From positions 9,618 to 73,617 of IMG/VR virus record IMGVR_UViG_3300017747_005082: a stretch of DNA of 64,000 nt; one strand, 5' to 3'. This DNA comes from a virus. Its lineage: Duplodnaviria > Heunggongvirae > Uroviricota > Caudoviricetes. Under the pieces are notes generated by a model, which had not been told where the DNA came from, searched no databases, and saw only the letters and a list, made by a program, of their open reading frames with translations. The position numbers and the translations under genes were made by a program. This document shows positions 6,117 to 49,719 of this stretch, one piece after another; the stretch's first letter is position 1, and every line of letters begins with the position of its first letter.

Positions 6117-7573
6117 TTATTCGTCTTCATCTTCATATTCGTCTTCTTCATCATCTTCTTCATCAGAAAATACAGCACTTAATATATCTTCAGTACTAGC
6201 TTCTGGATTTTCATCTTCAGCTATATCACTAAATTTATCCATATATTTAGTAATTATTTCTACCGGTAAACCCATTTTTTTAGATAAATTTAAATACATT
6301 TGTTCTGCATCATATATATATTCTAGTTCATAATTTATATCATTAATATGATTATAAAATATTTGTTTTATATCTTCTTTAGATAGATCTTGATTTTCAT
6401 TTAATATTTTTATTCCTGCTAATTGTTGCATTCTAGCAACTTCATTTAATTGTTTCATTTTATAATTTTAAATTTTTTAGGAGGTTTTGGTACTTCTACC
6501 TCTTGTAATTCTTCTTCAGATTCTTCATTATCAGTTTCTTCTGTTTCTTCGCCAGGTTCTGATGTTAAATCACTTACAAATTCATCTTTCATATCTTTTT
6601 CATTAGAATCTTCTTCACCTGGGCCTTCGGAACCTGGAGGCATACCCATTAATAATAGATCAGTGATAGCTTTCATAGCATATTCTTCATCTTTAATATT
6701 CATTAAATGATATTGTTTTCCAGCTATTTTAGCTATATAAGCTTTAGGATTATATGTAAGATAAAAAGATTGACCATTATGTAATAGAATTTTAAATGTT
6801 GTTGGTTTTGGAGCCATTACATATATCCCTGTTAGATAATCTCTAAACACAGAAGTCATTAGTTCTTCTAGAGTAGCCTCTAAAGAAGGATATTTTTTAA
6901 TTATATATTCTAAAGGATCTTTTTCAAATGTTAATATTTCCTCTTTACGATTTTGTATTTCATTATCAATTTCCTCACTAAGTATTTTTTTTAATGTCAT
7001 TGGTTGTTCTGTAATAAACTTACCGTCTATTTTTTTAATACTATTTAATGGTTTATAGAAAATTTTATCATTATTATCTAAAGTTAAATAAGCGTGAGTA
7101 AAATTATTTGCTATATTTTTAAGATAATAAGTCTTAGGATCATTATTTAATATAACCCTAGAGCCTCTACCTAACTTATTAATAATATTATCGTAAGCCA
7201 TTTATTTTAATAATTTAGCTTGGAAATTTCTAGCTAATTTAGAAGGACGTTCAAATTGTTTTTCCCCTTCTCCAAATTTAATCTTATCAATAGCCTCTGT
7301 TAATGATTTTGCTTTAACATTAAAATCATAATCTATTTTATTATCATTTTGATGAATAATAAAATATACATTATAATAATTTTCTTTAATTAAAGCATTA
7401 GAATAACCATCTCTGATAGCAACTTTCAATTTTGTTCTATCTAGTTCAGGAAAAGTGTTTAATACTGAAGAATATATATTTTGTATAGTTTTATCATCTT
7501 CAGCAAAACGTTGTTCCGGAGATTCTCCAGTTATTACTTCTTTAATTATATCTCTTAATCTACTTTTCTTCAT
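6117..7573 (-). other. three hypothetical CDS (6117-6458, 6455-7201, 7202-7573)
   Basis: Contiguous acidic ORFs with overlapping start/stop. Confidence 0.6.
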
Positions 7574-7745
7574 TAGAAGTTGTTTTTTGTTTAATAAAAG
7601 CAGACCATATTATACCAACTAATGATACTGCACTACCACTAATAGTAGCTATTGTAGCTTCATCTGTTACTCCATAAGTCACTAAAATTCCACCAACAAA
7701 AGTTAAACCATGTCTAATAAGTCCTAATATTTGATCTTTATTCAT
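7560..7745 (-). CDS. small two-TM membrane protein, holin-like
   Basis: Two hydrophobic segments and a basic C-terminus. Confidence 0.45.
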   Translation of the reverse strand: MNKDQILGLIRHGLTFVGGILVTYGVTDEATIATISGSAVSLVGIIWSAFIKQKTTSNEEK

Positions 7746-7780
7746 ATTATTTATTTTAATATAAATATATTAATCTTTAA

Positions 7781-7966
7781 TTATCCATGTAACATTTTTG
7801 ATTTGGGAATAGATGGCTGTGATTTTTTTACTGCTTGATAATAACCATTACTATCACAAGCTATTCCTCCTAATAATTCATAATCAGAATGTGATTGAAG
7901 AAAATTATTTACTTCTTCTTGTAAATCTTGAAAAAAATTAGCGGCAATTATTATATAATCTAACAT
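7781..7966 (-). CDS. hypothetical protein
   Basis: 61-aa ORF after a terminator/promoter cassette. Confidence 0.5.
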   Translation of the reverse strand: MLDYIIIAANFFQDLQEEVNNFLQSHSDYELLGGIACDSNGYYQAVKKSQPSIPKSKMLHG

Positions 7967-19388: not shown

Positions 19389-22300
19389 TTAAATTAAGTT
19401 TTGGTTTTTTAGTTGTTTAATAATATTACCTGCTTTATTTTTTACGTTATCACTTATGTTATTAGGTAATATAATTCCAGATGAAGTAGCTCCAGGTTTT
19501 TTACTAGTATTTAATACTAAATTAGTTTCATCAGATATTTTTGATAACATAATAAAGTTTTGAATATTTTTAGCTAAGCTACCACTTTCACTATAATCTA
19601 AACAAGCTTGATTTGGAATACTATTTGTTAGTTCAATAACAAGTCTATTATCATAACTAGATGATATTGGTTGAGATTGTGGAAAATGTATGGCTTTAAT
19701 TTCATTCTCAAAATTAATTGGAAATGATCTTCTATCATTATTATAAAATCTTACTAAATCTCCTACTTTTAAATGGAATATAGTTTCTATTTCTTCATAT
19801 CCCAAAGGAGAAAATAAAGGTGATGTTTGTATAAATTGATTTCCTTCATTTAATATTCTATTATAAATAATATCAGATAGATAAAATGAACCTGTTAATA
19901 AATTATAATTACTTCCATTAGTATCACTATTCCCTCTTTCAAAATACCAATTATTAATTGGAGCAGAACCAGAATTAAATCCATAATCTAATGATCCTGT
20001 TATGTAAATATAATCTGGTGGAGAAGTATATATAAATGGAGTTCCAATTCTAGCAAATGCATTTTGATTAGATTGAGGTAACTCAGTAAATTGTATATTA
20101 TTAACTCCAGTTTTAGTTAGATTTACTGTAGCACGTATATTTCCGATATTATTATTTATATCTCGTAATTCAATATTTCCTGAGTTTACTCCATCAGGTA
20201 ATATGATTATACCTTCAATATTAAAATTAATTATTATTTCTAAATTATTAGCTGATTCTATAGGATAATTTCCTTCAGGAATATTAGATGTAGGTACATT
20301 ACCAAAACTATTAAGTTTATTACTAATATTAAAAGAAGCACTGGTACTTAATACCATTAAATTAGCACTAGTAACTCCATTAGTAAGTGGATTAACTATA
20401 TTTGGGTTTTGGGTTGGTCCTGTAAATGAATTAATTAATGTATCTAAATTTGGATGTCTATATATATCTGCTTTAATACCTGCAGGTACCTTTATAGAAC
20501 GTACATTATCATTAAATCCAGGAAAATCAGGATCATTATTAAAATTATTATATACCCCAGGTTCTAATAAATATTCTACACCTGTATAATTTGTATTTCT
20601 ATAAAATCTAGTAATTAGATTTGTAGGGGGTGATACTTTAGTTATAAATGATACAGAACCTGTTACCTTTTGAATTATTTGTCCTGGATATAATGTATTT
20701 CTAGTTACATTAACTAATATTCTTGAATTTAAATTTGATTGTAATGTATTAGATAAGGTATTAAGTCCAGGAGTTATTGTTGGGTTAGATTGTAAAGATA
20801 AAAAATTAATAGACAAATCTTCATTAGCTAAAGGTGATGTTACTTCACTCCCTGATATATTTTGGATTGGAATATCATTTAAAAATGTATATTCTAATGA
20901 ATTATGAGTAGAAGTTGTTGTTGATAAATTTTGTAGTACTGTTTCATATCTAAATCCTCCAGCAAATATAGGTTTTAAACCATCTAATATTTTTTGGTTG
21001 CTTGGATTTTGATTATCATCTAATAGTACATCAGCTTTATTTACATTAAAAATTGATTGTATATCAAAAAGATTTTTATTTTGCCTTGTTAATTCTGTAA
21101 TATTTGAATTTTCATCTATTAGATATTTTATATAAGCGTTTGTTCTTCCAGGTAATGTTAATGATTGAGAAGTCATTTCCTCAAAATAAACAAATTTATT
21201 ATTATTTTTATTAATTACAGGATTTTTACCATAAGAGATATCTCCAATATTATATATATTATATTCTTTAGAAATTAATTTACTTCCTAAATATCTAGGT
21301 TGTGTATATCTTTTTAATGTATAGTTACTTTCTTGAATATCAGCATTTATAACTTCATTATTAACATTATCAAATAATGAAGAGGTAATATAATTTAAAT
21401 TCACTGGAATATTTATATTCCCATTATAATCAACATTAAAATATTTTTTTGATGTTCTTGCTTTTTCAACATTATTTAATATTGGATCAAATATTAATTT
21501 AGAATAATTTTTACTAATTTCCTCATTTTCTAATTTAATTTTATTTAATTCATATACTATATTAGTACTAGGTAATTTATATACTTCTATTTCAGAATCA
21601 CTTAATTCTCCGTTATATAATTCTTTATTATCTGTACTAACTTTAGCAACTATTCCTATTTCAGTATTATAATATTTAGTATTAGAAGAATCTATAGTTG
21701 AATTAAGACCATTTGAACCTGTTATAAAAGCAGTTTGAATTTCTGTTTCCATATATTTAGATTCTACTACAGGTTCAAATTTTTGAACCTTATTTCTTTC
21801 TAAAATATGAGGTTTTATTACTAAACCAGAAGATAAATTAGCTTTAGCAGGAACATAATCTTTTATCATTTTAAATAAAGAATTATCTAAATATGATAAT
21901 AATTTAATAATATCAAATATATCTTGTTTTTCTAAATACTTTTTAAAATAAAATGATCTTAGTTCATCTAATTTAGGATAAGTTAGTTTATTAGCATCTC
22001 TAGGATCACCTATATATTCATCTAAATTAAAATTACCTAATTGTTTTATTATATCATCATTTATAGAATTTTGGGGAGAAATAGCTATTTCTAATTTAGA
22101 TGAATTTTTTACTTGATTATATTTTTGTTTTTTTACTATTGAAACATTTGGAGATAAGGTATTATCAGGTAATGTTTCAGTTTCAATAATTTTTATTTTT
22201 TCATTTGATTCAATAAAACTACCTCCATTCGGTGAATTTACTAAATATTGCTCATAATTAGGAATATATCTTATAAATGATGGATTTGAATTTACAGCAT

Positions 22301-36760: not shown

Positions 36761-36781
36761 AAGGCCTCAAAATGAGGCCTT
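36761..36781 (-). terminator. GGCC-type terminator hairpin after TROVE gene
   Basis: aaggcctca/tgaggcctt plus T-run. Confidence 0.65.
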
Positions 36782-36785
36782 ATTA

Positions 36786-38396
36786 TTAAATTACTATTGC
36801 TTCAATTTCATCAATTAACGCTTTATATCCTTTACAATTAGATTGAATTAAATCAAATATCTTATCTGACCAACCAGCAATTTGTAAAACATTTAATGAT
36901 TTATCAAATACTGAAGTTCCCTTTGTTTGTTTAATATCAACACATATAGTATTACATTGTGGATTTACTTGTTTGAATTTTTTAAATAATATTTGAAATG
37001 ATCCTAAACCAGCATTTGAAGTATTATCCCATCCTCCAATTCCTCCAGAACTAATAACCATATCTGAAAATATAACTAAATTATCAACTTTTGTGTTATT
37101 TTTAATAACATCGTTTAAGAAATAATATAATCCATTTTCTGTATTGGCTCCACATTCTTTTCCTTTTTCAAATGAACGTTTATTAAAATCTAATAAACCT
37201 AATTTTCTATCCATATTAATTGAAATTAATTCATTTCCAAATAATCCCATATAAACATCTCTTTGGGAATATGCTAACATAGAACCAAATAAATTCCCAA
37301 TCATAGCAGTTGTTGTTTTAGAAAAAGCGGATATTTTAGAACTACCTCCTGCATCTCCTCTTACGGAACCTGAATGATCTACTAATATGGCAGTATTACC
37401 TTCTAATGCTGGAATATTATCTACAGAATATTCTAATGCTTTTTCTAATGCTTTTAATACTTTTTCTATAAGTACTTTAGGTTTCATATCTGATTCAAAA
37501 GCTATTTTAGAAGATGAAGTAGTTGGGTTTATATCTTCTACTTCTTTATATGCTGATACAAATCTAAAAGGTAATAATTTAGATTTTAACACTTTATCTC
37601 TATTAGTTAATTGACTAATAGCGTCATCTACTTTATCAGGAGCTAATAGAATAATATTTCTTAAATTTCTTACCAAATTCATCATTGGCATTCCTTTTAC
37701 ATTATCTAATACAGTAGTAATAGCTTCTTCTTTAAGAGTTTCAACTTTAACTCCTGTAGATTTAGCAATTTGACCTGCTTTAGACATTTCTTTTTCAAGA
37801 ATTTTAGTATTATATAATCCATCTAAAGATTCTCCTTTTATTAAACGTTTATACGCTTCTTCATTAATTTGAGAAGGTACTGGATGTGTTAAATTAACTA
37901 AATCTACTAATGAAATTCCTTTTTTAGCCATTTTATACTTATCTATTAAATAAGGATCCATTGACTCTAATTTAGATTTAAATCCTCTCTTCATAGCACT
38001 TGCTATTTTTGTATTTCCTTTTGAGAAATAATAAGCTAGAATTTCTGACATATCATCAGGTCTAGAAGCAATTTTTCTATAAAATCTTGAAGCATATTCT
38101 TTTCCTGATAATCTTGGAGCTAATTCTCCCGAAAGTAAATGAGTTACTGATCTCATATTAGCATCATTTCTTAGATATAAAGCTAATTTTGCTACAAATT
38201 GTTCATCAACAACAGAAGCAGCTTTATTTATTCTATCAACTACTTCTTTTTCTTTTTCATAATATGAATTTGAAAGAAATGTAGTCAAACAAGTTGATAC
38301 TAATTCTTCTTTAGCGCTTAATTGATACGCTTTTTCTCCCATTTTATTTACTGTAGTTGGAACTACTGGTTCTTTTGTTTTGTTAAATTTCGACAT
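36786..38396 (-). CDS. rsr: Ro60/Rsr TROVE-domain RNA-binding protein with C-terminal vWA domain
   Basis: FVAKLALYLR....MRS, KYK......SLVDLVNLTHP, LLPFRF..AY, LVDHSGS MIDAS, VIFSD. Confidence 0.9.
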   Translation of the reverse strand: MSKFNKTKEPVVPTTVNKMGEKAYQLSAKEELVSTCLTTFLSNSYYEKEKEVVDRINKAASVVDEQFVAKLALYLRNDANMRSVTHLLSGELAPRLSGKEYASRFYRKIASRPDDMSEILAYYFSKGNTKIASAMKRGFKSKLESMDPYLIDKYKMAKKGISLVDLVNLTHPVPSQINEEAYKRLIKGESLDGLYNTKILEKEMSKAGQIAKSTGVKVETLKEEAITTVLDNVKGMPMMNLVRNLRNIILLAPDKVDDAISQLTNRDKVLKSKLLPFRFVSAYKEVEDINPTTSSSKIAFESDMKPKVLIEKVLKALEKALEYSVDNIPALEGNTAILVDHSGSVRGDAGGSSKISAFSKTTTAMIGNLFGSMLAYSQRDVYMGLFGNELISINMDRKLGLLDFNKRSFEKGKECGANTENGLYYFLNDVIKNNTKVDNLVIFSDMVISSGGIGGWDNTSNAGLGSFQILFKKFKQVNPQCNTICVDIKQTKGTSVFDKSLNVLQIAGWSDKIFDLIQSNCKGYKALIDEIEAIVI

Positions 38397-38961
38397 GACT
38401 TAAAATTTTAATATTTAATATTTGTTCTAAATATTCAAACATAGGTTTGAATTCTTCTCTATATAATTCTTTTTTAATAATAGGATATTCTTCTTGGTAT
38501 TTATTATACATGGTTGAATTAGTAAGTAAACCATAAGAAGTATTTGCAATTATATCACATAATTTAACAAATAATCCTAAACGACATTCTTTTAAACCCA
38601 TAATATATTCAATTCCATGTCTTTCTTTTCTATTTTTACCTTTTAATTCAGTACAAGAATAAATAACTTCTGCAACTTCTTTAGAAATATTAATTTTATT
38701 AGATCCATTTGGATAATGTTCTTCAAAATATATAGAATATTGAAGTATATCATTATATGTTATTCTGGCATCTTCAATCAAATCATGCCCCCAAGCTCCA
38801 TTTAATGCTATACATAAATCTTTTGGATTTAATATAAATTGAAATTTTTCTACTTGTTTTGCTACTAGATTTAAATGAAATGAATATGGTAAATTTTTAT
38901 CATATTTTTGATTACAATTAATATCATGTTGTTGTTTACAAAATTCTATAAATTTACTCAT
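38383..38961 (-). CDS. RelA/SpoT-type HD hydrolase (small alarmone hydrolase/Mesh1-like)
   Basis: QKY...PYSFHL..V, AWGHDLIED, VKLCDIIAN. Confidence 0.7.
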   Translation of the reverse strand: MSKFIEFCKQQHDINCNQKYDKNLPYSFHLNLVAKQVEKFQFILNPKDLCIALNGAWGHDLIEDARITYNDILQYSIYFEEHYPNGSNKINISKEVAEVIYSCTELKGKNRKERHGIEYIMGLKECRLGLFVKLCDIIANTSYGLLTNSTMYNKYQEEYPIIKKELYREEFKPMFEYLEQILNIKILSHVEI

Positions 38962-39128
38962 AATCTCTATTTTTTAAATTAATATTATTATTTTCTTTTC
39001 TTTGAGATGGAGTAAAAAACATTGCTCGTTTAGGTCCTTTATCTATTTTATTTTTTAGAATAGATCCTACTCCATAACTATTTTTTAATTTTTTCTTTTT
39101 ATTTTGACTAGCCATAATTTTTAAAAAT

Positions 39129-39163
39129 AAAAAGGGTTAAAGTTGCTTAGCATCCTTAACCCT
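39129..39163 (-). terminator. terminator-like hairpin between the Y-like RNAs and the HD-TROVE genes
   Basis: agggttaa/ttaaccct stem followed by TTTTTATTTTT on minus strand. Confidence 0.5.
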
Positions 39164-39171
39164 GTTAATTT

Positions 39172-39310
39172 TAGTAGAGAAATCTAGTAGAGTGTTAATC
39201 TAAATGATTGTTTAAGAGACAATTGCCTTACCACTTGGCTAATTTTCCATGCAGAAAATATAGGATTCGAACCTATGAAAACGAAGTAACTCTAGCTATT
39301 ACAACTACTA
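39172..39310 (-). ncRNA. Y-RNA-like element with circularly permuted tRNA-like domain (YrlA-like)
   Basis: Outer TAGTAG/CTACTA stem, bulged-C helix, TACTTCG, then T-arm, loop-closed acceptor, D-arm, anticodon-like arm. Confidence 0.7.
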
Positions 39311-39319
39311 ATATAATTA

Positions 39320-39406
39320 ACAAGGGAATTATTGAACTGAGAATTTGGTTGAAGATTAATTTTAGAATAATTATGTTCGAAGTATCTCAAATTTCTTACC
39401 ACTTGT
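39320..39406 (-). ncRNA. minimal Y-RNA-like element
   Basis: ACAAG/CTTGT stem, TGGTAA, GAA(A)TTTG/CAAATTC stem, TACTTCG. Confidence 0.55.
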
Positions 39407-39415
39407 ATATGCGAT

Positions 39416-39550
39416 TAAGTAAGGGAAAGTTTAGAAAAGGTTGTTATAGTTTTTTGTGGGAGTTGAACCCACGACCTTAAATTCCAAATATTTACGCTCA
39501 ACCAACTGAGCTTAAAAAACGAAGTAACTTTTCTAGTTACCACTTACTTA
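39416..39550 (-). ncRNA. Y-RNA-like element enclosing a complete tRNA-like cloverleaf (TTG loop) at 39448-39520
   Basis: TAAGTAAG/CTTACTTA, TGGTAA, TAGAAAAG/CTTTTCTA, TACTTCG, then GTTTTTT/AAAAAAC acceptor with D, anticodon and T arms. Confidence 0.7.
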
Positions 39551-39564
39551 TATTTATCAATGAA

Positions 39565-39610
39565 CTTATTATATTGTGAATATATGAATTAAAAATTTAT
39601 AATCCAAATA
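39565..39610 (-). promoter_or_regulatory. Bacteroidota-type promoter driving the Y-like RNA cluster
   Basis: TTGGATT...TTCATATATTCACAATATA, matches the repeated promoter motif. Confidence 0.6.
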
Positions 39611-39652
39611 TATTTTAAGTAATTTTTATATTATTTATATAAAAATAATTTG

Positions 39653-39726
39653 TGGCCAAGAAAGGTAACGATCCTTCTATCTTCTGATTATGAGTCAGTT
39701 GCTTTTACCATCTAAGCTACATGGCC
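39653..39726 (-). tRNA. tRNA-Met/Ile2 (CAT)
   Basis: Cloverleaf, loop CTCATAA, atypical T-loop ATCGTTA. Confidence 0.75.
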
Positions 39727-39909
39727 AATTTTGTGGAGAATAGGTACTCACCCCACTATACTTTCCCATACCTAATAACTTAAGATACTAAAGCTTTAAA
39801 TTTTAATACACTTTATAGCCCTGTAGTTTTCGCTGTTCTCGAAACCGTATCTACTTAGGAGACTTCTGCTATAAAATTCACATAAAACTGATGTTAAGTA
39901 TTAAAAATA

Positions 39910-40176
39910 TTATTCTGTGTATTCTAAGATATATTTATCAATTAATGATTGAGATATTTCTTTTTTAACACATTTTTGTCTTTCTTTACCTTTCAAAACA
40001 GCGTAAGCTTCATATAAATGTCTTAATTTTTCTCTATTACTAAAAACATTATAAGTGGCTTGATCTGCTTCTACTGTTCTTATACCGGTAAAATGAATTG
40101 TTTTTCTTTGTGGTTTTAAAACTACTTGTTGATCAACTAATTGTTTAATATCTGTTCTAATTTTTGTATATTTCAT
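39910..40176 (-). CDS. hypothetical basic protein, translationally coupled (ATGA) to the Pth2-like gene
   Basis: Its ATG overlaps the TGA of 40173-40514. Confidence 0.65.
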   Translation of the reverse strand: MKYTKIRTDIKQLVDQQVVLKPQRKTIHFTGIRTVEADQATYNVFSNREKLRHLYEAYAVLKGKERQKCVKKEISQSLIDKYILEYTE

Positions 40177-40514
40177 GATAATGTTAATTTTAATTTTTTA
40201 AATAATTGTTTGTGTAATTCTGATGGAAGTGATTCAATAGCAATAGCTGTTAATTGATTACCTATATCAGGTTCTAAAAACACACTATATTTAATTTTAA
40301 GTTCATCTAATTTTGATCTTAAGATCTCAATTTTGAACTCTGATTCTTCCAAACAGCATAAATAATTACTTTTAAATTGCCATTCTTTAAATTCATGATA
40401 ATACTTTACAGCAAAATCAGCTAACGCATGAGCGGATTGTACTACCTTATAACCAGGTGTTAAATCCTTTCTTGTAACAATAGTGATAAAATCACCTTCT
40501 TTAATCTACTTCAT
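40173..40514 (-). CDS. peptidyl-tRNA hydrolase 2 (Pth2)-like protein with in-frame TAG at codon 3
   Basis: Hand translation MK*IKEGDFITIVTRKDLTPGYKVVQSAHALADF...FLEPDIGNQLTAIAI...; 114 codons, TAG at 40506-40508; absent from the ORF track. Confidence 0.8.
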
Positions 40515-40537
40515 AATAAAAATTATTTAATTAGTAG

Positions 40538-40611
40538 TGATTTTAATGGGACTCGAACCCATAACCTTCAGTTTTAGAGACTGCTGCTCTTACCAATTGA
40601 GCTATAAAACC
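40538..40611 (-). tRNA. amber suppressor tRNA (anticodon CTA)
   Basis: Cloverleaf GGTTTTA/TAAAATC, D-arm GCTC/GAGC, loop CTCTAAA, T-arm ATGGG-TTCGAGT-CCCAT. Confidence 0.9.
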
Positions 40612-40831
40612 AATTTTCATTACATGAGATTACTGTAACTAGATTTTAACTGTTTTTTTTCTTAAAAATTCAACAATTAGTGTCTTACCACATGAACTAA
40701 AATCAACCTTTCCGTGGAGGAGTAGGTAGTTCTCCTTTTATCCAATCGGCCCCTTCTGTAAAATCGTAGACGGAACAACTATAACTTTGTTAATGTAAGT
40801 TACAAAACATCAAGTATCTCTTACTTATTCG

Positions 40832-40901
40832 TAGCGGTCGCAGGAATCGAACCTGACCTTAGGGTTATGAGCCCTTCGTGCTACCCTTACACTACCCCGC
40901 G
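40832..40901 (-). tRNA. initiator-like tRNA-Met (CAT), atypical
   Basis: CGCGGGG start, GGG/CCC anticodon stem, mismatch at 1:72; shortened variable/T region. Confidence 0.7.
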
Positions 40902-41036
40902 ATATATTTTTATTATTAAACGGTGACAGCTCTTCATGTTTTTTGAACATTATGTCAATAATATGTAATATAAATCCGCTGTACCTAAAGAGTCTCGTAT
41001 CTCTCATTGATAGCCGCCTCCGTTTAATAATTTTTG

Positions 41037-41110
41037 CCGTCCTTATGGGACTCGAACCCATGATCTCCTACGTGACAGGCAGGCATCCACTCCAACTGGA
41101 CCGAAAGACG
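41037..41110 (-). tRNA. tRNA-Asp (GTC)
   Basis: Cloverleaf, loop CTGTCAC, G73. Confidence 0.9.
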
Positions 41111-41202
41111 AAGCTTGGTGTTTTATATTAGTTTCCATTTTTTTAATATAAAAAATCGACCACCGCCTCAAACACCATGAGGGATAAATGCTTTAAAAAT
41201 TG

Positions 41203-41275
41203 TGGATACGCAGGGATTCGAACCCTATCTTCCTAATTGCAAATCAGGAGCATTTGCCATTTATGCTAGCGACCC
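41203..41275 (-). tRNA. tRNA-Ala (TGC)
   Basis: Loop TTTGCAA, G3:U70, imperfect lower acceptor stem. Confidence 0.8.
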
Positions 41276-41279
41276 ATTG

Positions 41280-41352
41280 TAAGAGAGAATACTAAGAAGA
41301 GTTTATTGTTAAAATCCATTTATCGAAGTAACTCTATCTTTTACTACTCTTA
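41280..41352 (-). ncRNA. minimal Y-RNA-like element
   Basis: TAAGAG/CTCTTA stem, TAGTAA, GA(T)AGAGTT/AACTCTTC bulged helix, TACTTCG. Confidence 0.6.
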
Positions 41353-41353
41353 G

Positions 41354-41427
41354 TAACGCATATGGGATTCGAACCCACGATCTTATCATAGAAAGTGATA
41401 CGTGTTAGCCAACTACACTAATGCGTC
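41354..41427 (-). tRNA. tRNA-Glu (TTC)
   Basis: Cloverleaf, loop CTTTCTA. Confidence 0.85.
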
Positions 41428-41606
41428 ATTTTAAATAAGTTGTAGAGGCTTTTAGGGATAATTATAGGCAACTTTTCACCGTAAACTCGGCTTCCCAAAC
41501 TCATTTGCACTTATATCTTATCTTTTACGCGTGCAACTTATTATATTGTAAATATATGAACTTATATTTTATAAATCAAATATTTTTTAAAATATTTTTA
41601 TTTTTG

Positions 41607-41682
41607 AGCAGAATGTGGGATTCGAACCCACGATGATTCTACATTGGAAGTGTAGCGCAATCGGCCGCTATGCGAATTCTGC
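41607..41682 (-). tRNA. tRNA-Gly (TCC)
   Basis: Cloverleaf, loop CTTCCAA, U73. Confidence 0.9.
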
Positions 41683-41740
41683 AAATAGTAAGAAATAAAA
41701 TATAGAACCACGAGCACTGATGAATTCTATTCTTACTTTG

Positions 41741-41814
41741 TACTCTGAGAGGGGGTCGAACCCTCAAAAATCTTGTTCCTAAGACAAGCGCGTATGCCAT
41801 TCCGCCATCAGAGC
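41741..41814 (-). tRNA. tRNA-Leu (TAG), short variable region
   Basis: Cloverleaf, loop CTTAGGA, variable region only ATTTTT. Confidence 0.8.
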
Positions 41815-41822
41815 AGTTTTTG

Positions 41823-41907
41823 TACCGCTACCGGGAGTTGAACCCGGACGCCCATTCTGGACACAAGATTTTAAGTCTTGCATGACTACCAATTCCATCA
41901 TAGCGGC
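41823..41907 (-). tRNA. tRNA-Leu (TAA)
   Basis: Class II cloverleaf, loop CTTAAAA. Confidence 0.92.
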
Positions 41908-41945
41908 GTTTAAAGAAGAGTATGATGTTGATTCTCTCTTCTTTG

Positions 41946-42021
41946 AGGTAAGGATAGGATTTGAACCTACGAACATATGGGTTGCAACCATCTCCCTTAA
42001 ACCAAACTCGGGCACCTTACC
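41946..42021 (-). tRNA. tRNA-Cys (GCA)
   Basis: Cloverleaf, loop TTGCAAC, U73. Confidence 0.9.
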
Positions 42022-42029
42022 AAGTAAAT

Positions 42030-42098
42030 TAAATAGTATGGTTTTGAATTCATATCTCCTCGAAAATCAAGGGCTCTAATATTTGAGCTAACTATTTA
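42030..42098 (-). pseudogene. degenerate tRNA-like sequence
   Basis: TAAATAG/CTATTTA acceptor and GCTC/GAGC D-arm, but broken anticodon and T arms. Confidence 0.5.
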
Positions 42099-42234
42099 AT
42101 TATCATATTGTCCATAATTTGTTCTTGGACTTATTTCTTCAAAATCTCTAAAACTTGATTCATCTTCCATAATCCAATTATTTAAATTTCTATGTTATAA
42201 ATATATGAATTAAAATTTTATAATCCAAATTTTT

Positions 42235-42738
42235 TTAAAAAAGTAAATATTTTTCCCAACTTTTAGGTAAATTATCTATACCTTTTAACAACATAAGATA
42301 ATGTGGACGTTTTGGTTGAGGAATTTCTTTACCATATTCTGTTAAAGTTAAATCCGCTTTTTCACTATTACATTTTTTACATGCTGTAACTACATTTTCA
42401 AAAGTATTCTGACCACCTTTTGATGTTGGATGAACATGATCTAATGTTAAAGTTTTTTTATTATCACAACCACAATAAACACATTCAAAATTATCTCTTT
42501 TAAATACATTTTCTCTTGAAAATGGAACTTTTTGAAAAGGTTGATTTACATATTTAAAAACTCTAATAACTGATGGTTTTTTAATATCTAATTCAGGATT
42601 AACTAGTTTAAAGCTCTCGTCATGTTCCTGAATTACTTCAGCATTTCCTTTATAGGAAATAACAAAGGCTCTTTCTGTTGAGATAATACTTCTAGCTATA
42701 TAACTTGAATCTATTACTAGTGTTTTTCTATTATTCAT
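42235..42738 (-). CDS. HNH endonuclease (McrA-like)
   Basis: RDNFECVYCG...TLDHVHP..KGG...ENVVTACKKCN. Confidence 0.9.
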   Translation of the reverse strand: MNNRKTLVIDSSYIARSIISTERAFVISYKGNAEVIQEHDESFKLVNPELDIKKPSVIRVFKYVNQPFQKVPFSRENVFKRDNFECVYCGCDNKKTLTLDHVHPTSKGGQNTFENVVTACKKCNSEKADLTLTEYGKEIPQPKRPHYLMLLKGIDNLPKSWEKYLLF

Positions 42739-42920
42739 GACTTTATTTTATGTTGTGTTTTTCTATTATGTTTCCAAGAACGGTATTCTCTATATTTAAA
42801 ATATCCATGTCCTGCTTCACATCCTTCTTCACAATATGGAGGATATAGATCATTTAAAAACATTACTCTATATTCCTTATTGTTAATAGCTTTTTTATAT
42901 CTATCTCTATTTATACTCAT
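42735..42920 (-). CDS. small basic protein (RSWK..RKTQ motif)
   Basis: 61 aa; TGA overlaps the HNH ATG. Confidence 0.6.
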   Translation of the reverse strand: MSINRDRYKKAINNKEYRVMFLNDLYPPYCEEGCEAGHGYFKYREYRSWKHNRKTQHKIKS

Positions 42921-42932
42921 TTTTGCTCATTT

Positions 42933-42974
42933 TTAGGTTATTTAAACCTAATAAGCGTCAAATTTCTTTTTCAT
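42933..42974 (-). promoter_or_regulatory. TAG-terminated uORF (MKKKFDAY*) plus hairpin upstream of 42735-42920
   Basis: ATG 42972-74, TAG 42948-50, TAA 42942-44; TTAGGTT/AACCTAA stem. Confidence 0.55.
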
Positions 42975-43060
42975 AATTACTAATTTATATGTTTAAAACA
43001 ATCTTGATAGAATTCTGGTAAGTTTTTCTTTACCAAACTACTAAAAATGGGTGCGACTTG

Positions 43061-43131
43061 CACAGATGGTTGCAATCGAAGCAACTCGTTGAGATTTTGG
43101 AGATCTAATCGACACCAAGCCTGTCATCTGT
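43061..43131 (-). tRNA. tRNA-Trp (CCA), weak D-arm
   Basis: ACAGATG/CATCTGT acceptor, loop CTCCAAA, G73. Confidence 0.75.
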
Positions 43132-43138
43132 ATTTTTG

Positions 43139-43211
43139 AACCCCCATTCAGATTCGAACTGAAATAAAATATCTTAGAAGGATATGGCATTTCCATTTAT
43201 GCTACAGGGGC
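43139..43211 (-). tRNA. tRNA-Arg (TCT)
   Basis: Cloverleaf, loop CTTCTAA. Confidence 0.85.
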
Positions 43212-43490
43212 AAATTTACCTAGATTTCGTTCTAGGAAGACGTAAATAATAAATTCCTGGAACCTATTATTTAACAGCTTATTAAGCCGCTATTGCAAAG
43301 TTGTCCTTTACGTTTATATTAATCTCTATCTATTACTTAATCTAATGTCAAAGCCATTCCTCCCCTTATACAGTAGAGATAACTATAAGTTATCTCAACA
43401 CCCTAAAATACACATGGTATAAGGGCTTAGTGGAGAGGCTGGGTTTCGAACCCAGGTCCATTAAAATGTTAATAAACGTCAACAATTAAT
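43212..43490 (-). ncRNA. ssrA: circularly permuted (two-piece) tmRNA
   Basis: 3' piece GAC-CTGGG-TTCGAAA-CCCAG-CCTCTCC-A (to 43431) precedes 5' piece GGGGAGG-AATGGCTTT-GAC (from 43365); G3:U70; tag frame 43282-43311 VKDNFAIAA* TAA TAA; outer ends approximate. Confidence 0.88.
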
Positions 43491-43495
43491 ACTTG

Positions 43496-43570
43496 TGCAC
43501 CAACGAGGATTCGAACCCACGATATCTCTTAGTCCGTAGCTAAGTGTTTTTCCATTTAAACTATAAGTGC
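43496..43570 (-). tRNA. tRNA-Arg (ACG)
   Basis: Cloverleaf, loop CTACGGA. Confidence 0.85.
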
Positions 43571-43623
43571 TGGTGGGCATCCAAACCTAACTAAATAGGA
43601 AACCTGGCCATGTAGGTTTTTAG

Positions 43624-43712
43624 GGTGAAAGATGGGATTCGAACCCACATTAGAAAATTAATTCATTCCAGATCCACAATCTAGTCGGCATCCCTTACCG
43701 GTTACAATCACC
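43624..43712 (-). tRNA. tRNA-His (GTG) with 19-nt variable region
   Basis: G-1:C73, loop TTGTGGA. Confidence 0.8.
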
Positions 43713-43789
43713 ATATTAAAAATAAAGCTGACCTCCTAGTGGGCTTTAACCGTTAGCATTTAAGATACATTTACTCCACTTTATTTTAG

Positions 43790-43862
43790 TAGCGATGATA
43801 GGTTTTGAACCTACTACCTGAAGTTTATGAATCTTCCGCTCTACCAATTGAGCTACATCGCC
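43790..43862 (-). tRNA. tRNA-Met/Ile2 (CAT)
   Basis: Cloverleaf, loop TTCATAA. Confidence 0.85.
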
Positions 43863-43866
43863 AAAT

Positions 43867-43938
43867 AATCCCCTAATGGATTTCATACCATTATCTCCTG
43901 CTAGCTAGTCGGTTTATGAATATTAACTTAAAGGGATT
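43867..43938 (-). pseudogene. degenerate tRNA-like sequence
   Basis: AATCCC/GGGATT closing stem and AATGG-TATGAAAT-CCATT T-like arm; no proper anticodon arm. Confidence 0.4.
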
Positions 43939-43940
43939 TG

Positions 43941-44025
43941 AAGAGAGTATGAGATTCGAACTCATGCCGCGAATTAACGCGGACCGATTAGCAATCGGAT
44001 GCAATAACCACTCTGCCAACTCTCC
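43941..44025 (-). tRNA. tRNA-Ser (GCT)
   Basis: Class II cloverleaf, loop TTGCTAA. Confidence 0.9.
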
Positions 44026-44080
44026 ATAAATACCTCACCCTGAGCGCGCTGATCTTAAGGGAAGCGGGGTGAGTATGTTG

Positions 44081-44155
44081 TACTCATAGCTGGATTTGAA
44101 CCAGCGCGTAAAATCTTATCAGGATTTCTTTCTACCAGACTGAAAATATATGAGT
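44081..44155 (-). tRNA. tRNA-Ile (GAT)
   Basis: Cloverleaf, loop CTGATAA. Confidence 0.85.
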
Positions 44156-44233
44156 AAATAATTATAAGCTTAGGGACCACTTTTATGTTGCAACTAACCC
44201 TTGATTGAAAAGATGTGCTTCACTTATAATTTG

Positions 44234-44305
44234 CTCCTCCGGGGAATTTCGAAATCCCGACCATCGACTTAACAGGTCGCCGCTCTACCTCTGAGCTACG
44301 GAGAA
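44234..44305 (-). tRNA. tRNA-Asn (GTT)
   Basis: Cloverleaf, loop CTGTTAA, G73. Confidence 0.9.
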
Positions 44306-44346
44306 TTTTATTTTATTTTATTTTATTATTTCAATTTCGATTTTTG

Positions 44347-44420
44347 TGGAGATAGATGGATTTGAACCATCGTCCACCTCATCTTCAGTGAGGCACTCTA
44401 CCAGGCTGAGTTATATCTCC
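44347..44420 (-). tRNA. tRNA-Phe (GAA)
   Basis: Cloverleaf, loop CTGAAGA. Confidence 0.9.
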
Positions 44421-44480
44421 AATTTACTACTTTGATTTGGACACAGGACAAAGTAGAGAAAAAACCTCCCGTTTTGTTAA

Positions 44481-44714
44481 TTATTGGTGGTGTTTTATAT
44501 AACGACCAAATTTATCAATACGTAAATTCATACGTGTTAAAGATAAATTCCAAGAATTAAAATTAGACAATTTTGTTTTTTGTTGTGCCATTTTAAGAGC
44601 ACTAACTTCTGCTTTTGAACGATCCTTCTCTGTTGTTTCAACAAAGTAAGTGGGAGCTTGAGCACCAGTAATACTAGTAGGAACTACTCTCCAAATTCTA
44701 ATTTGTGTTTCCAT
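44481..44714 (-). CDS. hypothetical protein
   Basis: 77-aa ORF inside the tRNA array. Confidence 0.6.
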   Translation of the reverse strand: METQIRIWRVVPTSITGAQAPTYFVETTEKDRSKAEVSALKMAQQKTKLSNFNSWNLSLTRMNLRIDKFGRYIKHHQ

Positions 44715-44716
44715 AA

Positions 44717-44759
44717 TTTTAACGCTAAGTTAAAACTAGGAAGAATTTAGATTTGTCAT
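44717..44759 (-). promoter_or_regulatory. TAG-terminated uORF (MTNLNSS*) plus hairpin upstream of 44481-44714
   Basis: ATG 44757-59, TAG 44736-38, TAA 44730-32; TTTTAAC/GTTAAAA stem ends 2 nt before ATG. Confidence 0.6.
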
Positions 44760-44769
44760 AATTTTAATT

Positions 44770-45051
44770 TTATTTTCTTGAATATTTTTTAACATCTTCA
44801 AGGTCCCATCCTCTAAAAATGTTCATTCTATTATCTTTTTCTTTATCAACATAAATTCTAAAAATATAATCACAATAACTATATTGATCATAAATTGATT
44901 TAGGATTTGTAAAAGAAAAATCTTCATCCCAAAATTTAGAGCTTTTTATTTCATTATTCCAAGCTCTTCTAATTGTTCTCCAATATAAAGATGTTCTTTT
45001 GTAATTTCTTGGTTTGTCTTTAATTATTGGTTTTTTTCGACTTCTTGACAT
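44770..45051 (-). CDS. small basic protein (MSRSRKKP...DY...RK family)
   Basis: 93 aa, Arg/Lys/aromatic-rich. Confidence 0.6.
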   Translation of the reverse strand: MSRSRKKPIIKDKPRNYKRTSLYWRTIRRAWNNEIKSSKFWDEDFSFTNPKSIYDQYSYCDYIFRIYVDKEKDNRMNIFRGWDLEDVKKYSRK

Positions 45052-45057
45052 TTTTTT

Positions 45058-45096
45058 CTAGGTTTAAATTAATACCTAGAAGACTGAATATTTCAT
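45058..45096 (-). promoter_or_regulatory. TAG-terminated uORF (MKYSVF*) plus hairpin upstream of 44770-45051
   Basis: ATG 45094-96, TAG 45076-78, TAA 45064-66; CTAGGT/ACCTAG stem ends 6 nt before ATG. Confidence 0.6.
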
Positions 45097-45099
45097 AAT

Positions 45100-45747
45100 T
45101 TATTTTTTAATATTTCTTCCTTTATAAGTAGGTGTTTGGGAATGACAATTTGGGCATAATATTTTTAAATTTTCTAATAAATTATTTGAAGAATTACCAT
45201 CTATATGCTCTAAATCAAATGAAATTATTTTATTATTCCATTCTTTAATTCCACAATCTTCACATTGTTCTATTTTCAATCCTTCTCTATATAAATATCT
45301 TTTTAAACATCCAGTAAATGAATTATAATATTTATTTTCAATAAATTCTTCTCCTTTTAATAGTTTAGAAAAATCTCTAAATTTCCCTCTCCCAGATTTT
45401 TGTAATTTTTTATTTTTTATATAATTTAAATTATATTTATTGAATAATAATATTATATATGGTTTTGAAATTTTATAAATTTTATTTATCTTATAAATAG
45501 AATAGTTTAATTTTATTACTTCATCTAAAAATGTTTTTTCATCTTTAAATCCTAATTTTTTTAATATTTCCCAATAATCTATTGGTAATTTTTTTGGTTT
45601 AGATTTATTCCTTTTTTTGGTTTTGGGGTAATCTTTTAGATAATATCCTACAGTACCCTTTCCAATTTGTAAAATTTCACAAATTTGAGGTATAGTTTTT
45701 AATTCTTTCCTCAAATCCCAAATCATTTCTTTCCTTTCTAAATTCAT
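45100..45747 (-). CDS. HNH homing-endonuclease-like protein with N-terminal HTH
   Basis: CEDCG...DLEHIDGNSSNN.LENLKILCPNCHSQT. Confidence 0.85.
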   Translation of the reverse strand: MNLERKEMIWDLRKELKTIPQICEILQIGKGTVGYYLKDYPKTKKRNKSKPKKLPIDYWEILKKLGFKDEKTFLDEVIKLNYSIYKINKIYKISKPYIILLFNKYNLNYIKNKKLQKSGRGKFRDFSKLLKGEEFIENKYYNSFTGCLKRYLYREGLKIEQCEDCGIKEWNNKIISFDLEHIDGNSSNNLLENLKILCPNCHSQTPTYKGRNIKK

Positions 45748-45799
45748 ATTGTATATTTAATATAAATATACGAACATATTTATAATTAGCAAAGGTTTG

Positions 45800-45880
45800 T
45801 GGGAGGTAGTGGACTCGAACCACTCCCGTTAGGATTCGATTTACAGTCGAACTGCTATATCCAAATAACTTTTACCTCCC
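45800..45880 (-). tRNA. tRNA-Tyr (GTA)
   Basis: Class II cloverleaf, loop CTGTAAA. Confidence 0.85.
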
Positions 45881-45891
45881 AATTTATTTTG

Positions 45892-45962
45892 TACCTCGGG
45901 AAGGAATCGAACCTTCTCCATATCCGTGTAAAAGATAGACGCTACCATTACATCACCGAGGT
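45892..45962 (-). tRNA. tRNA-Val (TAC)
   Basis: Cloverleaf, loop TTTACAC. Confidence 0.85.
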
Positions 45963-46000
45963 ATAATTAGGTTTTTTATGGAAACCTGTAAAACCATTTG

Positions 46001-46073
46001 TACCCCCGGCAGGCCTCGAACCCACTACCCCTCCGTTAAAAGCGGAGTGCCCGTCCACATGAGCTTCGAAGGC
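46001..46073 (-). tRNA. tRNA-Lys (TTT)
   Basis: Cloverleaf, loop CTTTTAA. Confidence 0.9.
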
Positions 46074-46126
46074 AAATTTAATTCTATGATACCACAAGGT
46101 CTATGAATTAATAACAGTCTCCATCG

Positions 46127-46199
46127 TCTAAGTGAAAGGTCTCGAACCTTCGGCCTCGTAATCCCAAATCACGCGCTCTACCAACTGAGCTACACCTAG
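46127..46199 (-). tRNA. tRNA-Pro (TGG)
   Basis: Cloverleaf, loop TTTGGGA. Confidence 0.9.
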
Positions 46200-46207
46200 A
46201 AATATTG

Positions 46208-46278
46208 TTTCTCTGCAGGGACTCGAACCCCGACGATAAAATCCAAAATTTTAGATGCTACCATTACATCACAGAGAA
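46208..46278 (-). tRNA. tRNA-Gln (TTG)
   Basis: Cloverleaf, loop TTTTGGA. Confidence 0.85.
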
Positions 46279-46284
46279 ATATTG

Positions 46285-46373
46285 AGGAAGAAGTGGGACT
46301 CGAACCCACAACCCAGTTACTCACCGAATTACTACTTTTCAAGAGTAGCCCCTCATCCAGCCGGATTCCTTCC
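46285..46373 (-). tRNA. tRNA-Ser (TGA)
   Basis: Class II cloverleaf, loop CTTGAAA. Confidence 0.88.
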
Positions 46374-46473
46374 AAATTTTACCGATATGTCAAAGTACGA
46401 CTTATTTAATTTCTTATTTAGTAAATATATGAATTTAATTCTTATAAACCAAATATTTTTTAAATTCTTTTTG

Positions 46474-46545
46474 AGGTCAATAACAGATTCGAACTGTTGT
46501 CTCCTGGTTACAAAGCAGGAATTTTACCAATTAAACTAATAGACC
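46474..46545 (-). tRNA. tRNA-Thr (TGT)
   Basis: Cloverleaf, loop TTTGTAA. Confidence 0.88.
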
Positions 46546-46546
46546 A

Positions 46547-46576
46547 ATAAAAAACCCGTTCTGTTGGGAACGGGTT
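46547..46576 (-). terminator. intrinsic terminator immediately 5' of the first tRNA
   Basis: AACCCGTTC/GAACGGGTT stem plus T-run. Confidence 0.75.
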
Positions 46577-46598
46577 ATATTTTAATATATAAAAATGA

Positions 46599-46733
46599 TT
46601 ATATTAAATCATTATCCCCGTTTTTATTTTTATGTAAATCTTCAATTCTAAAATTATTCACATTCATAGTTGAACCCGCCCATTGACTTACTTGAAGCGT
46701 CGGATAATTCGATATATGTTTATAATTTTTCAT
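46599..46733 (-). CDS. 44-aa putative leader peptide (attenuator)
   Basis: MKNYKHISNYPTLQVSQWAGSTMNVNNFRIEDLHKNKNGDNDLI*; contains the antiterminator GGGCGGGTT (46673-46681). Confidence 0.55.
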   Translation of the reverse strand: MKNYKHISNYPTLQVSQWAGSTMNVNNFRIEDLHKNKNGDNDLI

Positions 46734-47111
46734 TGTTGTTTTTATTACGTATATAAATATATGAAAGATTTTTTAAAATCCAAAATATTTTTAAAAATTT
46801 ATGTTATTTGGAATTTTTCCAAATTATCCTTCCCAAGTTTTTCCATAGAGAATTAAATCATCTCCGTACCAAGTACTTCCTTTAAATTTCATACTTCAGT
46901 CCCCCCATTTTTTTGAGTCCATGTTCCTCCACCCAATAATTCTATACATATTTTCATACTCCAATTCCTCCATTTTTAATCCCATGAACTTTATCCCAAA
47001 CTATTAAATCACTTATGACTATATCAAATGATATAATATCCATTCCTGTTCCTCCTTTAAAATTTTTCATATTATTAATTTTTATTTAATATAAATATAT
47101 AAAACTAAAAT

Positions 47112-49552: not shown

Positions 49553-49719
49553 TGATAATGACAGGATTCGAACCTGTAATTAGGATTTGCTTTTACCCGC
49601 TCTTGATTATCTGCTGACGGCCCACAACAAGTACATCCTATTAATTGTGGTGTTTTACTGTTATTCATTATCTAGCTCAAAGCTACTACAGTCAGCGTCT
49701 ACCATTCCGCCACATTACC
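49553..49719 (-). ncRNA. tRNA-like RNA with greatly expanded anticodon and variable regions (167 nt)
   Basis: GGTAATG/CATTATC acceptor, Leu-type D-arm, ACAGG-TTCGAAT-CCTGT T-arm; GCTGAC/GTCAGC stem encloses two sub-hairpins. Confidence 0.75.

Follow-up and report, generated by a model that had tools for sequence, protein, structure and literature searches.

A probable translation-accessory hot spot of exchangeable cassettes on a phage tRNA array

The window analysed here is a stretch of 64,000 nucleotides (nt) from a tailed phage (IMG/VR record IMGVR_UViG_3300017747_005082), corresponding to bases 9618-73617 of a complete, 180,524-bp phage record with direct terminal repeats. About 10 kb of its minus strand carry a tRNA gene array, a permuted transfer-messenger RNA (tmRNA), an amber suppressor tRNA next to a Pth2-like gene, a small alarmone hydrolase (SAH), Ro60 and a Y-like RNA. 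This stretch is most probably a hot spot for translation-accessory genes in a phage of myovirus type with the standard code, in which small exchangeable cassettes sit on a tRNA-array backbone, and not a single machine whose parts are inherited together. Every identifiable non-selfish gene or RNA in it falls under the theme of tRNA, ribosome rescue, alarmones or RNA quality control.

The presence of tRNAs, tmRNAs, Pth2 and Ro60 in large phages is already known. The present locus and its relatives show which of the parts travel together, namely the suppressor tRNA with a stop-gated Pth2 and SAH with Ro60, and which do not. The vague idea of a translation island is replaced by separate, testable units of two or three genes.

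From the observed identities, anatomy and distribution of the parts we infer their activities and timing as follows. The tRNA set would sustain translation of the AT-rich phage mRNAs at times when host tRNAs are in short supply, degraded or cleaved. After processing and CCA addition by the host, charging with alanine and loading with host SmpB, the tmRNA would release ribosomes that have stalled and mark their products with a peptide ending in NFAIAA. The cassette of tRNA(CUA), the Pth2-like gene and an 88-amino-acid (aa) open reading frame (ORF) would yield the hydrolase only by read-through of UAG at codon 3, and its synthesis would therefore be tied to the activity of the phage suppressor tRNA. 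SAH would remove (p)ppGpp, (p)ppApp or 3'-pyrophosphates on tRNA, while a Ro60 ribonucleoprotein (RNP) would bind misfolded or damaged RNAs; the SAH-Ro60 pair sits behind a tRNA-mimic Y-like RNA. Two HNH homing endonucleases would plausibly drive mosaic exchange.

Distribution of the parts among relatives

The original prediction, made from the DNA letters, had joined these parts into one integrated module. Co-conservation of the components was checked across relatives, and they are largely not conserved together. The syntenic sister locus L039 matches the window in array gene order and in the site of the tmRNA, and it has the two HNH genes, the small ORFs, SAH and a tRNA-Trp; no Ro60, suppressor tRNA or Pth2 is found in its fetched 20-kb locus. 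Three complete genomes (157-160 kb) with the suppressor and Pth2 encode no TROVE protein, and no PTH2 is encoded by two complete Ro60-bearing phages. Five SAH-bearing relatives, among them a 100%-complete 187-kb genome and one with the SAH-Ro60 pair, also lack PTH2. Taken together, Pth2 is missing from six records of relatives with SAH or Ro60, of which three are complete genomes. A seventh such record has a Pth2, which lies more than 20 kb from Ro60.

We surveyed 68 non-redundant IMG/VR loci of this PTH2 subfamily (32-70% identity). Within 3 kb of the gene, SAH occurs in none of them, Ro60 in two and a tmRNA called by ARAGORN in two. Among 80 SAH loci, seven contain Ro60, 26 any tRNA and none a suppressor or Pth2. 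The units that recur are the suppressor with a stop-gated Pth2, SAH followed by Ro60, and the tmRNA at a fixed site of the array. Translation and RNA genes tend to gather near tRNA arrays.

Several observations weigh against a mosaic of independent parts. Ro60 lies within 8 kb of suppressor-Pth2 in four other lineages (L046, L068, G008 and G009), a proximity that exceeds expectation for a gene present in ~0.2% of phage records. The parts also cluster more tightly than expected if they were placed at random in a 180-kb genome, and the cluster is flanked by two terminators, so co-transcription and functional cooperation among them are possible. In addition, TAG-terminated upstream open reading frames (uORFs) before two array genes could, judging from their sequence, link these genes to the suppressor.

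It nevertheless seems unlikely that the stretch is an integrated 10-kb counter-defence island of the kind originally predicted, which would sense shutdown by tRNA nucleases, toxSAS or ribosome stalling and then repair the damage by replacing tRNAs, rescuing ribosomes, recycling peptidyl-tRNA, removing alarmones and controlling RNA quality. All of these functional themes do lie on one strand between two terminators, the leader ORF and terminator before the array are conserved, and the proximity of Ro60 to suppressor-Pth2 in the four lineages fits such an island; published work also describes phage tRNAs and SAH-type enzymes that can counter tRNA-targeting toxins. Against it stands the separate distribution of the components in relatives. 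No sequence feature shows sensing and no sensor element was identified, the stretch gave no PADLOC or anti-defence family match, and ~1.15 kb of it consists of selfish HNH genes. The complete phage genome was found to contain no SmpB, CCA-adding enzyme, RtcB or RNA ligase, and repair would therefore depend on host factors.

Nearly all components of the original prediction lie on the minus strand at 36761-46790, and strong intrinsic terminators bound the stretch at both ends (46553-46576 and 36761-36781). The minus strand carries nearly all genes of the genome, which has a G+C content of 26%. The stretch reaches 0.29-0.35, compared with ~0.25, as expected where many tRNA genes follow one another. 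Just downstream of the stretch are gp6- and gp25-like baseplate-wedge genes, which place the phage in the contractile-tail (myovirus) type. A crAss-like identity, first suggested by the best named Ro60 matches (Crassvirales, 54-55% identity), was dropped on account of these genes. Megablast of the 10-kb stretch against 50,697 phage records returned no match. The phage was assembled from a freshwater metagenome, and the public sequencing runs that hold the sequence comprise one freshwater metagenome DNA run, probably the source sample, with no RNA run listed.

Suppressor tRNA and stop-gated Pth2

The suppressor tRNA is located directly upstream of the Pth2-like ORF, at a distance of 23 nt, and a small ORF overlaps the end of the latter:

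40537-40611, minus strand: amber suppressor tRNA(CUA) (ARAGORN; Rfam tRNA 70.7 bits)
40173-40514, minus strand: PTH2-family gene (Pfam PTH2) with the start ATG-AAG-TAG, the TAG at 40506-40508
39910-40176, minus strand: 88-aa ORF, its ATG overlapping the Pth2 stop

Under code 11 the Pth2 ORF is not intact, and the next canonical start, a TTG at 40352, loses half of the domain. Only when the TAG is read through does the product match Pfam PTH2, at 26.1 bits (cut-off 23) over profile positions 4-114 of 115. The R-x-D-L, Q..HA and E-P-D-I-G-N-Q columns, which we take to correspond to the canonical Pth2 catalytic residues, are invariant or nearly so in 10 PTH2 homologues. The anatomy of the amber-gated Pth2 in the original prediction was borne out: TAG is codon 3 of a gene that scores above the family cut-off and adjoins tRNA(CUA).

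The gate recurs in 57 of the 68 surveyed loci, where an ATG and 1-8 codons (20 in one locus) are followed by a stop ahead of the R-x-D motif. The distance from the stop to R-x-D is 7-14 codons in nearly all gated homologues, and an ATG between the two is absent in all but 2 of the 57. The gate stop is TAG in 56/57, and the sole TAA locus has a tRNA(UUA) directly upstream. A suppressor tRNA is present within 3 kb on the same strand in 55/68 loci, immediately flanking the gene on one side or the other; often no other tRNA occurs in the locus. TAG is nearly absent from the ~6,000 body codons of these genes, none of which terminates in TAG. The window suppressor shares 87% identity with the Pth2-side suppressor of L008 and 57-63% with the tRNA-Trp genes of relatives, indicating that the cassette arrived as a unit and not by mutation of a resident Trp gene. 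In 14/68 loci the 88-aa ORF has a homologue beside Pth2, which makes it a third conserved gene of the cassette; it has no family or fold match (Pfam, PHROGs and PADLOC, with nothing usable in the ESM Atlas).

The genome is read with the standard code. ORFs cover 77% of it under code 11 and 81% when TAG counts as sense, a gain no larger than that of the TGA control, and a second complete cassette-bearing genome, G005 (160 kb), is likewise not recoded. In recoded phages (code 15 or 4; Lak, crAss-like and Jade), as here, a phage suppressor tRNA is needed for genes with an in-frame stop. Unlike them, the present phage keeps the standard code and has one clear target, with the stop at codon 3; unlike code-change modules, the region shows no release factor or aminoacyl-tRNA synthetase. 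The stop-gated Pth2 offers a conserved target for the puzzling suppressor tRNAs of standard-code phages. No paper describing a stop-gated Pth2 was found in the literature; Iyer et al. (PMC7824862) include PTH2 among jumbo-phage genes, but not the gate.

Two accounts would dispense with a gate read by the suppressor. The suppressor and the Pth2 TAG could mark the early phase of a genetic-code change, the TAG being a tolerated drift mutation. Suppressors in standard-code relatives of recoded phages have been interpreted as pre-emergence or incipient code change (PMC7886860; bioRxiv 10.1101/2021.08.26.457843), and only a minority of the genes of this genome stop at TAG (25 of 296 gene calls). Drift is hardly credible, however, for a stop that occupies the same place in 57/68 homologues with identities down to 32%, in genes that otherwise almost never use TAG, either inside the body or at the end. 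The type of stop also tracks the anticodon, as the pairing of TAA with tRNA(UUA) shows, and no other sense TAG was found in the genome. Alternatively, Pth2 might be made independently of the suppressor, with ATG-AAG-TAG serving as a mini-ORF, re-initiation at the next codon (ATT) and tRNA(CUA) acting on something else. The codon after the stop encodes Ile in 39/57 and Val in 9/57 gated homologues, and the corresponding gene of the phage Sauce is annotated from a GTG that follows ATG-TAG; both observations favour re-initiation. We regard this as very improbable, since Thr, Ser or Asp follows the stop in nine homologues, and since re-initiation leaves unexplained both the match of stop and anticodon (TAG in all but the one TAA case with its UUA tRNA) and the adjacency of a suppressor in 55/68 loci, even as the sole tRNA. 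Read-through of the stop by the neighbouring suppressor is the reading that we retain.

Candidate sense TAGs elsewhere were rejected: 13 stop-spanning frames and eight read-through ORFs of L018 proved to be adjacent genes or ordinary TAG stops, with no PHROG match. L018 (genome 86000-99000, outside the window) contains paralogous small genes ending in ...YEIY (or SIY/DIY)-TAG, which supply several of the 25 TAG stops; many of the rejected candidates are members of this family.

The suppressor might also act more widely. Two further array genes carry short uORFs:

44770-45051, minus strand: conserved 93-aa ORF, with homologues in L039 and L043
44481-44714, minus strand: conserved 77-aa ORF, with homologues in L039 and L043

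In front of each of them lie a hairpin and a short uORF that terminates in TAG. The suppressor tRNA may thus be the RNA master switch of a small amber regulon within the array, in which UAG read-through turns on the Pth2-like hydrolase and, by way of TAG-ended uORFs with start-occluding hairpins, these two genes as well. Read-through and host defences aimed at tRNAs would bring collateral damage, in the form of ribosomes that run off messages ending in TAG, drop-off of peptidyl-tRNA, and tRNAs that are pyrophosphorylated or damaged; the tmRNA and an SAH-Ro60-Y RNP would clear it. Under such a scheme the co-location would be functional although the parts are exchangeable. We assign it a low probability. 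The first uORF, at 45058-45096 (minus strand) in the window and 3980-4025 in L039, conserves MK(Y/N)SVF-stop and the hairpin, with a compensatory change of G-C to A-T; its stop is TAG in the window, where the amber suppressor is present, and TAA in L039, where no suppressor is seen. The second uORF ends in TAG in both. As far as two sequences allow a judgement, this comparison neither supports nor refutes the regulon.

A similar arrangement is found in the cultured Mycobacterium phage Sauce, a Bixzunavirus (Bxz1-like, cluster C1; NC_054722). At 19974-20354 of this genome (L115), the annotated peptidyl-tRNA hydrolase starts at a GTG after an in-frame ATG-TAG, and a tRNA(CUA) lies 300 nt downstream. 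Like the window phage, Sauce has a PTH2-family gene preceded by ATG-TAG with tRNA(CUA) ~300 nt away, a large tRNA array by baseplate/tail genes, a tmRNA inside the array and a TROVE/Ro60 gene in the genome. It differs in that its tmRNA is annotated as a gene of ordinary one-piece length and 37 kb separate Ro60 from the array. The 40 kb around the Pth2 gene of Sauce contain no annotated SAH (the Ro60 neighbourhood was not inspected). The GTG after the TAG makes the gate ambiguous there, and the deposited annotation may hide the same amber gate.

SAH, Ro60 and a Y-like RNA

The second recurrent unit comes last in the stretch, as read along the minus strand:

39195-39305, minus strand: YrlA-like Y RNA candidate, with T arm, closed 7-bp acceptor, D arm and anticodon-like arm in a long 5'/3' stem
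39122-39163, minus strand: terminator-like hairpin with a T-run, between the RNA genes and SAH-Ro60
38954-39115, minus strand: 53-aa ORF upstream of SAH
38383-38961, minus strand: SAH, 192 aa, with an HD domain of the RelA/SpoT superfamily (profile and fold)
36786-38396, minus strand: Ro60 (TROVE), 536 aa, overlapping the SAH stop (Pfam and phrog_850)
36761-36781, minus strand: terminator 5 nt past the Ro60 stop (terminator scan)

Ro60 had been named correctly in the original prediction: the protein matches PF05731 at 57 bits (cut-off 23, E=2.6e-15) and phrog_850 over its full length (E=4.9e-37). Searched on its own, the HD protein draws no match from Pfam, NCBIfam or the PDB sequences. Its metagenomic homologues number 618, and the family profile built for it reaches SpoT, Mesh1, Lmo0812 and the Pseudomonas aeruginosa SAH in the PDB at E=6.6e-7 to 1e-5. 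The best Foldseek matches of its AlphaFold model (predicted local distance difference test 93.8) are P. aeruginosa SAH, a Bacteroides (p)ppApp hydrolase, RelH and Mesh1 (probability 1.00). The residues of the HD..ED motif (H59, D60, E63 and D64) do not vary among 25 homologues. The profile and fold matches therefore agree, as does the motif, with the RelA/SpoT-type HD hydrolase first proposed. As in known SAHs (PaSAH, RelH, Mesh1 and the toxSAS antitoxins), the HD fold forms a single domain with HD..ED, the best template-modelling scores being 0.63-0.68. It differs from them in its low identity (15-20%), in reaching no Pfam or NCBIfam model, in the lack of a visible adjacent toxSAS, and in its pairing with Ro60 in a subset of loci.

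SAH is directly followed by Ro60 in L004, L005 and L043/L044, whose Ro60s are 71-75% identical to that of the window, and the same order occurs with Ro60s that are only ~29% identical (L119, L147/149/162). In total the pair is present in 7/80 SAH loci, and 73/80 are without Ro60; the order recurs in at least 5 lineages. Conversely, Ro60 occurs without SAH in L006, cr111_1 and csAssE-Sib.

Y-like RNAs had been predicted in the plural. One of them, at 39195-39305, has independent support though it scores below the Rfam threshold; the others do not. Rfam YrlA (RF02553) matches this RNA at 27 bits, below the gathering score of 69, and at E=7e-4 in a local search. The module, located 800 nt upstream of Ro60 and on the same strand, has the order T arm, closed acceptor, D arm. 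It agrees with the description of Chen et al. 2014 (less than 4 kb from Ro60, same strand, T/acceptor/D module; PMC4201824), and a strict regular-expression scan located like permuted modules beside Ro60 in L006 and csAssE-Sib (L002). YrlA-like RNAs have also been reported near Ro60 in mycobacteriophages (PMC4201824). The terminator-like hairpin at 39122-39163 is kept in L004 and L005 with altered stem bases.

The unit resembles bacterial Ro60 (Rsr)-YrlA/YrlB systems, e.g. Salmonella rsr-yrlBA-rtcBA, in combining a TROVE protein with a tRNA-mimic RNA encoded on the same strand less than 4 kb away, and in the T-arm, closed acceptor, D-arm order of that RNA (PMC4201824). In contrast to the Salmonella operon, the partner is SAH and not RtcB/RtcA, and the RNA stays at 27 bits where the YrlA model asks for 69. 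It also keeps an anticodon-like arm and has a distinct motif, GWUACUUCG, nearby.

This 9-nt motif, GWTACTTCG in the DNA, is found in four copies on the minus strand:

39282-39290
39378-39386
39520-39528
41324-41332

The four copies compare with 0.19 expected, a 20-fold enrichment, and 0/100 shuffles reach 4. Three of them fall within 250 nt upstream of SAH-Ro60, directly 5' of tRNA or tRNA-like elements. Among all fetched loci the motif is concentrated in those that bear Ro60 (L002, L004, L005, L006, L043, L046 and L068), where it is on the Ro60 strand and directly 5' of tRNAs or permuted tRNA mimics. We put it forward as a new candidate Ro60-recognition or leader motif. Together with the SAH-Ro60 pairing, it is a candidate handle on the ligands and partner enzyme of phage Ro60 RNPs.

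The tRNA array and its two-piece tmRNA

Read along the minus strand, the stretch is ordered as follows:

44-aa leader ORF, terminator, tRNAs Thr-Ser-Gln-Pro-Lys-Val-Tyr, HNH endonuclease
two small ORFs with uORFs, tRNAs Phe-Asn-Ile-Ser-Met-His-Arg(ACG), permuted tmRNA
tRNA-Arg(TCT), Trp(CCA)-like tRNA, 61-aa ORF, second HNH gene, degenerate tRNA-like element
tRNAs Cys-Leu-Leu-Gly-Glu-Ala-Asp, CAT tRNA found by Rfam only, tRNA(CUA), Pth2-like gene, 88-aa ORF
tRNA-Met, tRNA-Gln, YrlA-like RNA, terminator-like hairpin, 53-aa ORF, SAH, Ro60, terminator

The features of the array itself are:

46599-46733, minus strand: 44-aa leader ORF preceding the array terminator
46553-46576, minus strand: leader terminator hairpin (terminator scan), 9-10 bp with 5 GC pairs, its T-run ending ~7 nt before tRNA-Thr
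39448-46545, minus strand: tRNA gene array, 25 ARAGORN tRNAs for 19 amino acids, including the CUA suppressor
45100-45747, minus strand: HNH homing endonuclease, 215 aa (phrog_14736, E=5.5e-25)
43282-43477, minus strand: circularly permuted tmRNA (Rfam RF04321)
43061-43131, minus strand: atypical tRNA-Trp(CCA)-like gene, called by neither ARAGORN nor Rfam
42735-42920, minus strand: 61-aa ORF upstream of the 167-aa HNH gene
42235-42738, minus strand: HNH homing endonuclease, 167 aa (Pfam HNH_5, E=2.1e-14; phrog_16726, E=1.5e-32)
42030-42097, minus strand: degenerate tRNA-like element
40833-40900, minus strand: third CAT tRNA, Rfam only

A permuted tmRNA, as originally proposed, is present: RF04321 matches at 60 bits, above the gathering score of 47, although ARAGORN does not call the gene. 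We identify it as a real two-piece tmRNA. The order is T arm and 3' acceptor strand, A-C-U-A, a 62-nt intervening segment, GGGGAGG (with G3:U70), the tag frame and a stop, and the encoded tag is (A)VKDNFAIAA. Homologues lie at the same site, just before tRNA-Arg(TCT), in L039 (62.3 bits) and L005 (33.8 bits). Across the three, G3:U70 is kept, the acceptor pairs 5:68 and 6:67 covary, and the intervening segment ranges from ~13 to ~190 nt. Their tags, VKDNFAIAA, VKDNFAFAA and ISNNYQLAA, all end in AA followed by a stop.

Phage tmRNAs usually come without an SmpB of their own, and its absence here does not speak against a two-piece tmRNA. Since the genome has neither SmpB nor a CCA-adding enzyme, the tmRNA must use host factors. 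Two-piece tmRNAs have already been described in phages, mostly marine (PMC9004378), and the family model comes from PMC11915505. The window RNA shares with those of Alphaproteobacteria, Betaproteobacteria, Cyanobacteria and marine phages such as Melnitz the permuted order, the excised intervening segment, the acceptor G3:U70 and a proteolysis-type tag ending in AA (PMC9004378, PMC11915505). Unlike them, it is very short (196 nt), is located within a tRNA array and belongs to a freshwater phage. In L008, at 2138-2370 upstream of suppressor-Pth2, weak beta_tmRNA and YrlA-model matches occur in a genome without Ro60 and may represent another permuted tmRNA.

The original count of 26 tRNAs for all 20 amino acids holds in part. 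The 25 ARAGORN tRNAs, two of them with a CAT anticodon, and the Rfam-only CAT tRNA make up the number; Trp depends on the atypical CCA-anticodon gene. This gene has a good 7-bp acceptor stem, a good T arm, a CUCCAAA loop and a weak D arm, and is syntenic with the tRNA-Trp of L039, an ordinary ARAGORN call there. The array tRNAs form a near-complete set, mostly with U34. None of them has an encoded CCA, in agreement with the original prediction; in most of them C-A-A, and not C-C-A, follows the discriminator, which looks like a common 3'-processing context. The element at 42030-42097, omitted from the original list, was ruled out as a usable tRNA by its 3-nt anticodon loop and broken T arm. ARAGORN run at a low threshold with introns allowed returned only noise.

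The uORFs and the terminator ahead of array genes, proposed from the outset as switches and an attenuator, are present and recur in the sister genome. L039 keeps the terminator stem, the start of the leader ORF and a promoter-like TATATTTATATAC box. A promoter would not fit between the terminator and tRNA-Thr, so transcription of the array must come from the leader, by read-through. The arrangement would fit an attenuator-like leader.

The two HNH genes and the conserved small ORFs did not appear in the original list. The 215-aa HNH gene has a 76% identical copy at the same site in L039, and homologues of the 167-aa gene occur in L039, L043 and L005. HNH homing endonucleases are a plausible vehicle of mosaic exchange. 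In the tRNA regions of T4-type phages, homing endonucleases (SegB) are interspersed among the phage tRNA genes. The window shares this interspersion, and with it a route to mosaic inheritance, but its endonucleases are of the HNH type. The small ORFs of 53, 61, 77, 88 and 93 aa have no match in Pfam or PHROGs, nor do those of 77, 88 and 93 aa in PADLOC.

Two minor observations concern RNAs related to the array. A tRNA-like gene at 49553-49719 (minus strand) of the window has good acceptor, D and T arms, with a 112-nt insert in place of the anticodon arm (Rfam tRNA 33.8 bits), and could be an intron-bearing tRNA or a further tRNA-mimic RNA. In L043, which bears SAH-Ro60, the tRNA array contains a GOLLD RNA (152 bits, 7394-7881) that encloses a tRNA with the four-base anticodon TTAA (ARAGORN).

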